DNA of 64,000 bases, from the NCBI RefSeq assembly GCF_024223415.1, contig NZ_CP100501.1; one strand, 5' to 3'. Positions 39,137 to 43,396 of the stretch are shown here, in pieces. Positions within the stretch are counted from its first letter, which is position 1; every line of letters begins with the position of its first letter. Origin of the DNA: Escherichia coli. Lineage in GTDB: Bacteria; Pseudomonadota; Gammaproteobacteria; Enterobacterales; Enterobacteriaceae. Under the pieces are notes generated by a model that saw nothing but the letters and a program-made list of their open reading frames with translations, was not told where the DNA came from and searched no databases. The position numbers were made by a program, and so were the translations under genes.

Positions 39137-40369
39137 TCATGTTGCCGCCAGCGGGCGACAGATCGCCCGCAGGGCGACGGCGCTGCACAGCGGAAACAGC
39201 GCCAGCAGAAGCCAGGGATAAACCGCCTGCGGCGACGGAATGAGCGCCTGGTCAAGTAAATGACCGAGCAGTAAATTCCCGGCTAACACCGCGCACCCTC
39301 CTGCGGTGGCGAGCGCTCCGTAGTGGGCGCCCAGCGTCGACTCCTCGGCGAACAGCGGGATCAGATCCTTGGCTGCGGGCACTAACAGCATCTGGCCGAG
39401 GGTGAGCAGCGTGACAAAACCAGCCGCCGGCATTAACCGCAGCCAACTTTCGGCGGGTGGGGCGGCGGCGAATAACGCCACGCTGGCAAAGGAAGCCGAC
39501 AGCAGCAGAAAGCCCACCGGCAGGATGCGCACGGCGCCCATTCGCCGGGCGAAGCGGGCGAGAGGGAGCTGGAGGGTGATAATCAACAGCGAGGCCAGCA
39601 TAAAGAGCGGCGCCAGATCCTGCTCGCGGCCGCCGGAACGTTGGATCTCCACCGGCAGAGCGAGGTAGAGTTGGTTGTAGCTCAACAGCCATGAGCTGTA
39701 GGCGAGAATAAACGCGACAAAGCGCGGCTGGCGCAAAGGCGTCCACCATGGGACTCGTCTGCGCGTTGTTGTCGTGTGCCCGTCGGCGGGCAGACCGAAA
39801 AAGAGCACCGCCAGCGCCAGAAGAAATATTCCCGCGCCGGCGAGGGCGATATGTCGAAAGCCGATCCCGCTCAGCACGCCTCCGGCCACCGGGCCGATCA
39901 CCGCTCCCAGTTCACCGCATACCGCAAACAGCGCAAACCACTCGGCGCGGCTGCGTTTCCCGTTGGCCTGGCTGTGGGTACCGGCCCGCGCCAGCAGGGC
40001 CTCTATCGACGGGGAGAACAGGGCGCCGCCGACGCCGGTCAGGCAGGCGCCAAGGATAATGGCCCACAGCGACGCCCCGCACGCCAGCAGGAGAAAACCG
40101 GCGACGCGAACGACGCAGCCGGCGAGAATGATCGCCTTAGCGCCATAGCGGTCGGCCAGCGTCCCGCCGAGGATAAACATCCCCTGTTGGGAGAAGGTAC
40201 GCAGCCCGAGGATCAGGCCGATAAGTCCGCCTGAGAGCAGCATGTCGTCGCGCAGGAAGAGGGCGAGGAAAGGTACGACCGCGTAAAAGCCAATATTAAA
40301 AACGAACTGGCTTCCCAGTAACACCGGAGGCCAGAGGGTTGCCGCAGGGCGCAGGGAGAAAAGAGGCAT
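39137..40369 (-). CDS. MFS transporter
   Basis: Hydrophobic 12-helix-like protein; high GC; start chosen at MPLFSL. Confidence 0.65.
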   Translation of the reverse strand: MPLFSLRPAATLWPPVLLGSQFVFNIGFYAVVPFLALFLRDDMLLSGGLIGLILGLRTFSQQGMFILGGTLADRYGAKAIILAGCVVRVAGFLLLACGASLWAIILGACLTGVGGALFSPSIEALLARAGTHSQANGKRSRAEWFALFAVCGELGAVIGPVAGGVLSGIGFRHIALAGAGIFLLALAVLFFGLPADGHTTTTRRRVPWWTPLRQPRFVAFILAYSSWLLSYNQLYLALPVEIQRSGGREQDLAPLFMLASLLIITLQLPLARFARRMGAVRILPVGFLLLSASFASVALFAAAPPAESWLRLMPAAGFVTLLTLGQMLLVPAAKDLIPLFAEESTLGAHYGALATAGGCAVLAGNLLLGHLLDQALIPSPQAVYPWLLLALFPLCSAVALRAICRPLAAT

Positions 40370-40380
40370 ATCCGCCCAAC

Positions 40381-41065
40381 CTAAACGATGAAATGAATGT
40401 GCTTTTTGCCGTGGTAAGGGGAGATCTCGATTTTGGTTTTCACCCGGAAAACGTCCCACAGCAGCGCTTCGGACAAAATCTCCTCCGGCGTCCCGCTGGC
40501 GAGGATCTGCCCCTGCTGCATCACGATCAGCGAATCGCAGAACATCGCGGCATGGTTAAGATCGTGAATGGCCACAATGCTGGTTACCGGCAGCTCGCTG
40601 ATCAACTGCATTAACTGCATCTGATGGTGTATATCCAGATGGTTGGTCGGCTCATCCAGCAGGATTTCGCTCGGGCTCTGCGCCAGCGCGCGGGCGATAT
40701 GCACCCGCTGCCGCTCGCCGCCGGAGAGGCTTAACCATCCCTGTTCGCTTTTCTCCAGCATAGCTACCCGCTGCAGCGCGGCGGCAATCGCTTCGTCATC
40801 CTGAGCGCTCCAGTTTGAGAACGGAGAGTGGTGGGGAATGCGTCCCAGGCGCACGACGTCGCGCACCCGCATATTGGCCTCGGTCATGCCGTGTTGCTCG
40901 ACGCAAGCCACGCGGCGGGCGAGCTGCTTTTTCGCCATCCGGGCGATATCCTGGCCGTCGAGGGTGACGCGACCTGCATCCGGGCGGCACCCGCAGCGAG
41001 ACATTATTGACGATGACCTTTTTGCCTGCCTTCCAGGTGATATTTTCAGCGCAAATACTCATCAC
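40381..41065 (-). pseudogene. Siderophore/iron-type ABC transporter ATP-binding protein with in-gene deletion removing the Walker A P-loop
   Basis: N-terminal [28 protein letters not shown] joins out of frame to [14 protein letters not shown]; signature LSGGERQR and Walker B LLDEPT present, no GxxGxGKS/T. Confidence 0.75.
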
Positions 41066-42099
41066 TTATTCCTTGAGCGGTAGATAATCACGGCAAAGAA
41101 AGGCACCCCAACCAGGGCGGTTACTACCCCAACGGGCAGACTTTGCGGGGCAATCAGCAGGCGCGACGCAATGTCCGCCAGTACCATCAATATCGCCCCT
41201 GCCAGCGCGCTGGCGATCAGCAACGTTCGGTGCAGCGGGCCAAAGAAGAAACGCATCACGTGCGGCACCACCAGGCCAACAAAGCCGATTGAGCCGGCCA
41301 TGCTGACGATGGTGGCGGTGATCAGCGCCGCAGTGGTGAAGAGGATCAGGCGCACGCGCGGCACAGCAATCCCCAGCGAGGCGGCGGCATCGTCGCCGAA
41401 GGTGAACGCGTCCAGCGCCCGGGCATACCACAGGCAGACCGCCAGACCCGCGAGCACCACCACGATGACCAACTGGAATTCGGGCCAGCGGACGCCGCTG
41501 AAGCTGCCCAGCAGCCAGAACATCACATCGCGCGCCTGCTGCGCGCTGGCGGTGGTGCTGATGGTATAGGCCGTGATGGCGTTAAATAACTGCGAGGCGG
41601 CGACGCCCGCAAGAATCGTACGCTCATTGCCGCCGCGCGCGCCGTTAGTCAGCAAGGCGACAAAGGCGAAGGCGGCGAAGGCCCCGGCAAAGGCGCCTGC
41701 CGAGAGGGAAATTGCGCCAGAGCCAAGGCCCAGCACCACGATCGACACCGCGCCGGTGGAGGCCCCGGCGGAGACGCCGAGGACGTAGGGTTCGGCGAGG
41801 GCATTCTTCAGCAAGCTTTGCAGCACGACACCGCAGATAGCGAGGCCGGCGCCGCAGCAGGCGGCGACCAGCGCGCGGCTGAGGCGGAAATCCCAGATAA
41901 CGCTCTCATAGATACGGTTGAGCGGCTCAGCGGTTAAGCCGGTTCTGTTGCTGATAGCATAAAAGACATTCTGCAGCGGGATGGCCAGCTCGCCAACGCT
42001 GACGCCCACAGCGATCACCAGCGCCAGCACGATCGCTGCCAGTACACACCAGCCGGTGAGCAGTATGCTGCGGCACGTCTCAATCGCGCCGACGCTCAT
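41062..42099 (-). CDS. FecCD-family ABC transporter permease
   Basis: 345 aa polytopic protein with FecCD-like motifs; overlaps neighbouring genes. Confidence 0.8.
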   Translation of the reverse strand: MSVGAIETCRSILLTGWCVLAAIVLALVIAVGVSVGELAIPLQNVFYAISNRTGLTAEPLNRIYESVIWDFRLSRALVAACCGAGLAICGVVLQSLLKNALAEPYVLGVSAGASTGAVSIVVLGLGSGAISLSAGAFAGAFAAFAFVALLTNGARGGNERTILAGVAASQLFNAITAYTISTTASAQQARDVMFWLLGSFSGVRWPEFQLVIVVVLAGLAVCLWYARALDAFTFGDDAAASLGIAVPRVRLILFTTAALITATIVSMAGSIGFVGLVVPHVMRFFFGPLHRTLLIASALAGAILMVLADIASRLLIAPQSLPVGVVTALVGVPFFAVIIYRSRNK

Positions 42100-43097
42100 C
42101 AGTTCAGCCCCATTTTTCTCAGCTGCTCGCCCACCTGCTCCGCGCCGTAAAGCGTGCGAATGGTCGGATTCATCGCCTGACCGTCCATGACCACGATATG
42201 GCCTTTTTTCACCGCCTCCAGCTGGCTGACGGCGGGATCGCTTTTGAGGAATTTGATCTTCTCCTCGGCTTTATCCAGCGCCCAGCGGTTACGATCCAGG
42301 CTGGCGACCACGATCACATCCGGGTTGGCGGCAATAATGCTCTCCCAGCTCACCGTGGGCCACTCGGTTTCGGAGGTAATCGCATTATGTCCGCCCAGCA
42401 CGCTGGCGATAAATCCGGAGGCGCTGTTTTTGCCGCCGACATAGGCATCGGCCGAAGGTGAGGCGCTGGAGAACCAGAAGACGAAGGAGAGATCCTTTTT
42501 GCTTTTACCAAACTCCTGGCGCAGGTCGGCTTCACGTTTTTTGAAATCGGCAATCAGCGCCTGACCACGATCTTCGACGTTGAAAATGCGGGAAAAATCG
42601 CTAATTTCCTGATACAGCCAGGTCATATCCCACAGCTTTTGCCGGCTGCCGTACATATCGCCGGTGGCCTTTTTGGTGGCGCACACCCCCGGTGAGACGT
42701 AGCTGTTCACGCCGACGGTGGCGAGATCTTCACGCCTGGCGACTTTGCTTTCCGGCCCCAGCAGCAGCGGCAACTGGGCGGGAACGAAATCAGGATTTTG
42801 CGCCAGCACCGATTCCAGGCTCGGAATTTCCACCGTCAAGGTTTTAATCTTCGCGTTTTGCTCAGCCAGCTGCGGTAAAACGCTGGTCGGCCAGAAGGCG
42901 CTGGCGACCACCTGCTTTTGCAGCCCGAGCAGCAGCAGAATTTCGACCGTATTTTGCCCCAGCGCGACCACGCGCTCCGGCGGCCGGGTGAAGGTCTCCT
43001 GATAGCCGCAGTTTTCAATCGTCAGGGGGTAGGTTGTTGCCAGCGCGGAACTGACGGCGGTGAACATCAAGCCTAACGCGCAAAGGACCTTCTTCAT
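42099..43097 (-). CDS. Periplasmic substrate-binding protein (iron-siderophore/cobalamin class)
   Basis: Signal peptide; 332 aa; operon context with FecCD-type permease. Confidence 0.75.
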   Translation of the reverse strand: MKKVLCALGLMFTAVSSALATTYPLTIENCGYQETFTRPPERVVALGQNTVEILLLLGLQKQVVASAFWPTSVLPQLAEQNAKIKTLTVEIPSLESVLAQNPDFVPAQLPLLLGPESKVARREDLATVGVNSYVSPGVCATKKATGDMYGSRQKLWDMTWLYQEISDFSRIFNVEDRGQALIADFKKREADLRQEFGKSKKDLSFVFWFSSASPSADAYVGGKNSASGFIASVLGGHNAITSETEWPTVSWESIIAANPDVIVVASLDRNRWALDKAEEKIKFLKSDPAVSQLEAVKKGHIVVMDGQAMNPTIRTLYGAEQVGEQLRKMGLN

Positions 43098-43206
43098 TAA
43101 ACGCTATCCTTGTAAACAGGCGAGTGGATGACCAGCAAATGGGAGTAATGCAAATGAAACTCATTATTATCGCGGGGTTTTATACAATGCCATATTTACA
43201 GTGTCA

Positions 43207-43396
43207 ATGTGTTCTTGCCCCCTTATTTCCAGACAGGGGTTGTATCTTAAGTTAATGTTACCCGCTGACGTCGATATTCTCGCGGAGAGCGATAACCCAA
43301 CGCACTGTGCGGATGGTTTTCATTGTAATGTTCGATCGCCACTGCAAGATTATGCAATGCCGTTCTTACATTCGGTTTCGGCATGAACGCGATGTA
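43207..43396. mobile_element. Fragment (about 190 bp) of the IS3-family element seen at 6411-7740
   Basis: About 95% identical to 6415-6600 (IS end plus orfB 3' end). Confidence 0.8.

Follow-up and report, generated by a model that had tools for sequence, protein, structure and literature searches.

The FhuBCD, FecBCDE, FepBCDG and BtuCDF systems of Escherichia coli share a three-part architecture, which consists of a cluster-A binding protein, a FecCD permease and a dedicated ATPase. Another locus, eitABCD, has been described as a putative ATP-binding cassette (ABC) iron transport locus on the plasmids pAPEC-O1-ColBM, pAPEC-O2-ColV, pChi7122-2 and pKF3-70 and on Cronobacter plasmids (PMC3251573, PMC2797631, PMC3852070, PMC7074816). 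Unlike the Fhu, Fec, Fep and Btu systems, the Eit locus has no cognate TonB-dependent outer-membrane receptor and includes a co-transcribed gene for a major facilitator superfamily (MFS) transporter, and its parts score far below the equivalog cut-offs of those families. Here we analyzed a stretch of E. coli DNA of 64,000 nucleotides (RefSeq assembly GCF_024223415.1, contig NZ_CP100501.1; hereafter, the window), in which the region 39137-43097 on the minus strand is, as judged from its sequence, eitABCD, the already named plasmid-borne operon for putative iron/siderophore uptake in avian-pathogenic E. coli (APEC). Very probably, the locus is the eitABCD of a ColV/ColBM-type IncF virulence plasmid, it lies on a Klebsiella-derived segment, and its eitC gene has been inactivated by an 80-bp deletion.

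Four collinear minus-strand genes were found at 39137-43097 in the list of open reading frames (ORFs) for 36-47 kb. An original prediction, made from the letters of this DNA alone, had proposed an operon of MFS transporter, ABC ATPase, FecCD permease and binding protein genes on this strand, and the ORF list and Pfam matches confirmed it. The gene eitA (42099-43097) encodes an intact periplasmic substrate-binding protein of 332 amino acids (Peripla_BP_2, PF01497, E=1.1e-28), which matched the NCBIfam equivalog NF052484 over positions 1-328 of 328 with 696.1 bits against a cut-off of 640. It is followed by eitB (41062-42099), encoding an intact FecCD-family permease of 345 amino acids (FecCD, PF01032, E=4.5e-86), whose stop codon overlaps the start of eitC (TGATG, as read from the sequence). 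The ABC_tran gene eitC is split into an 89-amino-acid ORF (40796-41065) and a 207-amino-acid ORF (40381-41004), and the last gene, eitD (39137-40324), encodes an intact MFS transporter of 395 amino acids from the RefSeq start (MFS_1, E=3e-33); its nearest NCBIfam model, an MdtH-like efflux family, gave a score far under the cut-off. The presence of both a FecCD permease and a Peripla_BP_2 binding protein is that of a type II ABC importer, and the order eitA-eitB-eitC-eitD on one strand, in a sequence near-identical to the type locus, is that of eit. Because the locus is a near-identical copy of a named one, it is not a chance feature. The high G+C content ascribed to the cluster was also borne out, with 61.1% over 39102-43212 versus 52.3% for the whole window, and 58-65% in the operon region versus 33-55% in its neighbors.

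By megablast against PLSDB, 213 plasmids covered at least 80% of the query 39000-43500, with pAPEC-O1-ColBM (NC_009837.1) in first place, and the window is about 99.95% identical to that plasmid over 33001-49457. The same genes, order, overlaps and flanks (aatA, IS629-like element, eit and resolvase) are found in pAPEC-O1-ColBM and in other ColV/ColBM, IncFII and Cronobacter plasmids. The EitA, EitB and EitD proteins are identical to their pAPEC-O1-ColBM counterparts, and three silent single-nucleotide polymorphisms (SNPs) separate the two sequences in and near the operon, at 40762 (eitC), 42144 (eitA) and 43542 (the nearby resolvase gene). The main difference in the operon lies in eitC, which is intact in pAPEC-O1-ColBM but 80 bp shorter in the window, with loss of Walker A and a frameshift. 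On a larger scale, the best plasmids in the searched collections covered only 85% of 28000-52000, so that the window represents a mosaic absent from those collections.

Pairwise alignment with the intact pAPEC-O1-ColBM homolog defined the lesion: exactly 80 bp, corresponding to nucleotides 80-159 of eitC, are missing between window positions 40983 and 40984. The loss takes codons 27-53, including the Walker A motif GPNGCGKS (residues 35-42 of intact EitC), and shifts the frame. It had been predicted that an out-of-frame deletion joins LRVPPG to RPDAGRVTL and removes Walker A, and the alignment showed this to be correct: the window EitC runs ..LRVPPGCRSRH.., with RPDAGRVTL encoded in a different frame. 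From the native ATG at 41062, the 5' remnant extends to a stop at 40796-40798 (ORF list and alignment to the intact gene; 40796-41062, minus strand) and encodes 88 amino acids, of which 26 are native and the following 62 are out of frame. The 3' remnant, the 207-amino-acid ORF, is in the native EitC frame from about 40986 and still encodes the Q-loop, the LSGGE signature, the Walker B motif ILLDEPT and the H-loop histidine; the P-loop is gone, and the ORF has no convincing ribosome-binding site. It matched the Pfam ABC_tran profile at positions 36-137 only and the NCBIfam EitC model NF052485 at positions 53-251 only, with 408.2 bits against a cut-off of 485, while the 89-amino-acid ORF covered model positions 1-28 only and positions 29-52 were covered by neither remnant. 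The intact reference EitC reached 518.7 bits against the same cut-off. Since EitA exceeds its cut-off, and the window EitC falls short of a threshold that the intact reference passes, the locus is eit and yet its eitC is a pseudogene. A nucleotide-binding subunit with the full motif set of a type II importer is missing, as Walker A lies within the deleted 80 bp.

The deletion junction, GCCGCCCGGA, lies at 40979-40988 (minus strand) and retains the microhomology GCCGC at 40984-40988, as seen in the alignments and in an independent contig from the Logan assemblies described below. Both breakpoints fall within the direct repeat GCCGC, which is perfect over 5 bp and matches at 9 of 10 positions when extended to GCCGC-N-CGGA. 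A hairpin-promoted deletion was considered and rejected, because the deleted 80 bp and their flanks fold no better than shuffled sequences (z=+0.89). With a hairpin unsupported, microhomology between the direct repeats is the sole mechanism left, and we infer that slipped-strand mispairing or microhomology-mediated deletion caused the 80-bp loss.

The allele is rare. The junction was present in none of the 217 PLSDB records and none of the 221 RefSeq complete E. coli records that carry the segment; the top matches in both collections to a 181-bp junction query were all in two pieces spanning 261 bp, and none was 100% identical in one piece. An exact scan of Joint Genome Institute (JGI) metagenome contigs gave no match to the deleted junction and 7 to an intact-junction control. 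Exact look-ups of the 88- and 89-amino-acid frameshift products and of a GTG-start variant in a collection of 15 billion proteins returned no match, and the 207-amino-acid junction ORF was found there once, in a Logan assembly of SRR21431807. In the Logan contig concerned (L002, 1207 bp), the DNA junction is exactly the same; the contig departs from the window at two further sites, and at one of these (window position 40762) its base is that of pAPEC-O1. Because the same junction occurs in SRR21431807 on another SNP background, the deletion is supported independently with respect to both data set and assembler. It appears to be a real and naturally occurring, if rare, allele that either descends from a single event or has arisen more than once.

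If the 80-bp gap had instead been introduced during sequencing or assembly of the source record, the real plasmid would have an intact eitC. The absence of the deletion from every complete plasmid and RefSeq E. coli record searched fits such an error, as does a second private frameshifting deletion in the window, of 44 bp at 47864/47865, whose allele is not in the public protein collection. The identical junction in an independent short-read contig on a background that differs by 2 SNPs speaks against it, however. So does the location of the junction within a direct repeat (5 bp perfect, 9/10 when extended), as is typically seen in biological slippage, and a repeat of that size is presumably well under typical assembler k-mer sizes. 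In other places, too, the quality of the window seems no worse than that of the reference: its IS91 transposase ORF is intact (430 amino acids) where the reference is 1 bp out of frame. We therefore regard an artefact as extremely improbable, and resequencing, which according to the original prediction could overturn the reading by restoring an intact gene, is unlikely to do so because the independent assembly has the same junction. As for the two features just mentioned, the 44 bp absent relative to pAPEC-O1-ColBM (CCTGACCGCTATCATCAGACTGGTGGAAAACCTCGGTAATTACC) split a 712-amino-acid AAA_13-family ATPase gene into ORFs at 47140-48066 and 47681-49234, at a junction without microhomology, and the resulting 308-amino-acid ORF is absent from the collection of 15 billion proteins, in which the intact protein is very common. 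One extra base at 46577 relative to pAPEC-O1-ColBM gives the uninterrupted IS91-family transposase ORF at 45610-46902; the corresponding coding sequence of pAPEC-O1-ColBM is 1172 bp long, which is not a multiple of three.

Family membership suggests that intact Eit would operate as a type II ABC importer of the BtuCD/FhuBC/FecCDE kind. In the periplasm, EitA would bind a ferric chelate or siderophore, a dimer of the EitB permease would translocate the ligand, and a dimer of the EitC ATPase would supply the energy; EitD would be an MFS transporter co-transcribed with eitABC. An EitC without its P-loop is expected to be incapable of binding ATP, and an importer that cannot be energized by its own ATPase marks eitC as a pseudogene. 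The premature stop, about 470 nucleotides upstream of eitD, might in addition lower eitD expression by polarity. The system would work only if a foreign ATPase docked on EitB; the earlier judgment that the transporter is probably inactive unless another ATPase substitutes is accordingly upheld by the loss of Walker A and of the frame in eitC. In some bacteria, one ATPase serves several siderophore permeases, as exemplified by staphylococcal FhuC, and a host ATPase such as FhuC, FepC, FecE or BtuD could in the same way drive EitA-EitB despite a real deletion. Such substitution would be helped by EitA and EitB being fully intact and identical to the reference, and the closest named relatives of EitC in NCBIfam include FecE and heme, corrinoid and enterobactin ATPases. 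Nothing in the sequence supports it, however; the type II importers of enterobacteria normally have ATPases of their own, and when the 64-kb window was searched for a substitute importer ATPase, no other intact one was found. We consider powering by a host ATPase improbable. The sole other ABC_tran match in the window belongs to an IS (insertion sequence)-truncated exporter fragment at 4850-5986 (minus strand), in which the C-terminal part of an ABC exporter ATPase continues, within one 378-amino-acid ORF, the reading frame of an IS3-family transposase (HTH_21 and rve). This part covers ABC_tran positions 56-137 with LSGGE and Walker B and is thus a second P-loop-less ABC fragment, made by IS insertion.

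Because the same junction occurs on two slightly different SNP backgrounds, the eitC deletion could also be read, instead of as neutral decay, as a recurrent or selected loss at the GCCGC-N-CGGA slippage site, with hosts either gaining from the shut-off of Eit or powering EitA-EitB by a host ATPase. We hold this to be very improbable; if true, host-ATPase powering would add one of the few documented examples of enterobacterial type II importers that share an ATPase.

The putative eit promoter region (43098-43212, minus strand) contains a Fur-box-like 19-mer together with promoter hexamers. Read by eye, TTGACA (43202-43207, reverse complement) and TATAAA (43179-43184, reverse complement) are separated by a 17-nucleotide spacer, and we tentatively take TTGACA-N17-TATAAA as the eit promoter. 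The Fur-box-like 19-mer, at 43150-43168, matches at 14 of 19 positions and follows closely after the putative -10; a scan of the 64 kb returned 2 sites with at least 14 of 19, where chance alone would give about 0.85 per window. For the eit copy of pKF3-70, too, a Fur site and a -35 of TTGACA have been predicted (PMC2797631). Repression of eit expression by Fur is thus weakly inferred.

Several points weigh against the reading of the locus as a Fur-controlled iron importer disabled by slippage. Fur control relies on a 14/19 match of a kind expected about once per window by chance, and the promoter scan did not select TTGACA-N17-TATAAA but picked a weak ATGGCA-16-GATAAT at 43193-43166; the scan passed over the former because its rule demands T at position 6. 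Slippage in the deleted segment is not favored by any unusual hairpin (z=+0.89), and a host ATPase might replace EitC. Finally, the eitABCD of pChi7122-2 gave no iron-uptake phenotype either on chrome azurol S (CAS) agar or in iron-limited growth (PMC3251573). The label of an iron-type cluster draws on homology and on the Fur-box-like site, and the iron/siderophore role of Eit is putative.

The missing phenotype leads to the alternative that eitABCD imports some other chelate or cofactor-like ligand, in which case the loss of EitC would have no iron-related consequence. The next-best NCBIfam families of all three ABC parts are models named "putative F420-0 ABC transporter", and the scores of corrinoid and heme families are close to those of ferric ones. 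A sequence search of PDB with EitA returned only unliganded structural-genomics binding proteins, the closest being 4mlz and 4n01, and gave no substrate clue. Beside the locus, neither a TonB-dependent receptor nor siderophore synthesis genes are present on the plasmid or on the Klebsiella chromosome. These observations would suit another ligand; on the other hand, the family is curated in NCBIfam as "siderophore ABC transporter", the Fur-box-like site lies in the promoter and was also predicted elsewhere (PMC2797631), and the literature reports iron systems together with the locus on virulence plasmids. A ligand other than iron chelates is on balance rather unlikely, and an iron or siderophore substrate is the assignment that we keep, as putative.

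The eit segment evidently comes from the Klebsiella chromosome, as a stretch of 4.1 kb, and is now enclosed by mobile-element ends. BLAST comparison of 39102-43212 (61.1% G+C) with the chromosomal eitABCD of Klebsiella pneumoniae and relatives (L003-L006) gave 98-99% DNA identity over 4.1 kb, with the same gene lengths and overlaps and with 2-7 amino-acid differences in each protein; synonymous codon differences exceed non-synonymous ones by about 3-4 to 1. In Klebsiella, eitC is intact, no IS elements are present, and the locus has a fixed housekeeping context on Mb-scale contigs, in the order TetR/RND, epimerase and LysR genes (upstream), eitABCD, and then MetE-like and MesX genes. An EitC allele named as Klebsiella, which clusters with the intact plasmid EitC at 90% identity, is indexed in more than 35,000 sequence-collection blocks. 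The Klebsiella homology stops at an IS-end fragment on one side (43212) and 14 bp from the end of an IS629-like element on the other (39102), and this ending at IS boundaries supports the past IS-mediated event that had been proposed.

On the left, the IS629 flank of the original prediction was found as an IS629-like IS3-family element of 1291 bp at 37797-39087 (plus strand), with orfA at 37851-38177 and orfB at 38199-39044. IS629 is about 1310 bp long and is defined by orfA and orfB with an rve integrase domain and by terminal inverted repeats of about 25 bp starting TGAACCGCCCCGG; the element here has HTH_Tnp_1 and rve ORFs and 26-bp terminal inverted repeats, and its name is the literature label for the pAPEC-O1-ColBM copy, with which it is 100% identical and which was reported to adjoin eitABCD (PMC3251573). 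Only 59 of 6993 matching E. coli records match this copy at 99% or more, most matching at 90-95%. In other eit plasmids, the sequence from about window position 39086 onward is shared but the element is absent; it is thus taken to be a later insertion in the pAPEC-O1-ColBM lineage and not the capturing agent. Its direct flanks differ (att and ata), with no clean 3-bp target duplication visible, and it is about 20 bp shorter than, and only 92% identical to, the IS629-type copy at 18808-20119. Beyond it, the window has a 3498-bp autotransporter ORF at 34207-37704 (1165 amino acids, 33-48% G+C), which by its length and position corresponds to aatA, the APEC autotransporter adhesin gene reported beside eitABCD on pAPEC-O1-ColBM (PMC2944236).

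On the right, the IS3-family end fragment that had been predicted at 43207-43396 (190 bp) is real, but its limits were redrawn by BLAST to 43210-43405 (196 bp). It derives from the terminus of an IS2-like (IS3-family) element and is 96.4% identical to window 6406-6601, where a complete IS2-like copy has its orfB-proximal end. The orfB of that copy gave 418 bits to the IS2 TnpB model, under the subfamily cut-off. The outer end of the fragment abuts the Klebsiella-derived DNA, and its inner end is cut by a Tn3/Tn21-type terminal inverted repeat (43406-43454; partner at 44209-44257; 49 nucleotides, 82% complementary). The repeat pair brackets a serine resolvase gene (43452-44042, 196 amino acids, Pfam resolvase match) in a unit of 852 bp (43406-44257), which contains no transposase gene and whose 49-nucleotide repeats start with the Tn21-type 38-bp terminal repeat (GGGGTCCGCTTGGAAAACGGAAAATATCCCACGCTAAG). 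Elements of the IS4321/IS5075 type target Tn21-type terminal repeats, and two related plasmids have such an element inserted somewhere in the region 43406-44257.

Plasmid backbone and cargo occupy positions 1-33000 of the window. An IncFII RepA is encoded at 1-873, a raffinose/sucrose utilization set at 8076-17778 (LacI-type regulator, alpha-galactosidase, LacY-type permease, GH32 invertase, PfkB kinase and LamB-type porin), and an oxamate-carbamoyltransferase-like cluster at 20949-28992 (isochorismatase, AllH, FdrA-like CoA ligase, AllG, carbamate kinase, cytosine/purine permease and LysR); they are interspersed with IS256-, IS66- and IS3-family elements.

Taken as a whole, this is a known operon with a rare inactivating deletion, a case of routine pseudogenization on a heavily IS-rearranged IncF virulence plasmid, and the eitC deletion is probably neutral. 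The practical value of the allele is limited, as it raises no new biological question and does not advance the identification of the Eit substrate. The analysis documents the plasmid eit module as a recent capture from the Klebsiella chromosome that is bounded by IS ends, which fits comparative remarks made previously (PMC2797631). The eit genes serve as polymerase chain reaction (PCR) and in-silico markers of APEC and extraintestinal pathogenic E. coli (ExPEC) virulence plasmids, and plasmids positive for such markers, for example, for eitA, can carry a dead transporter, as this allele shows.

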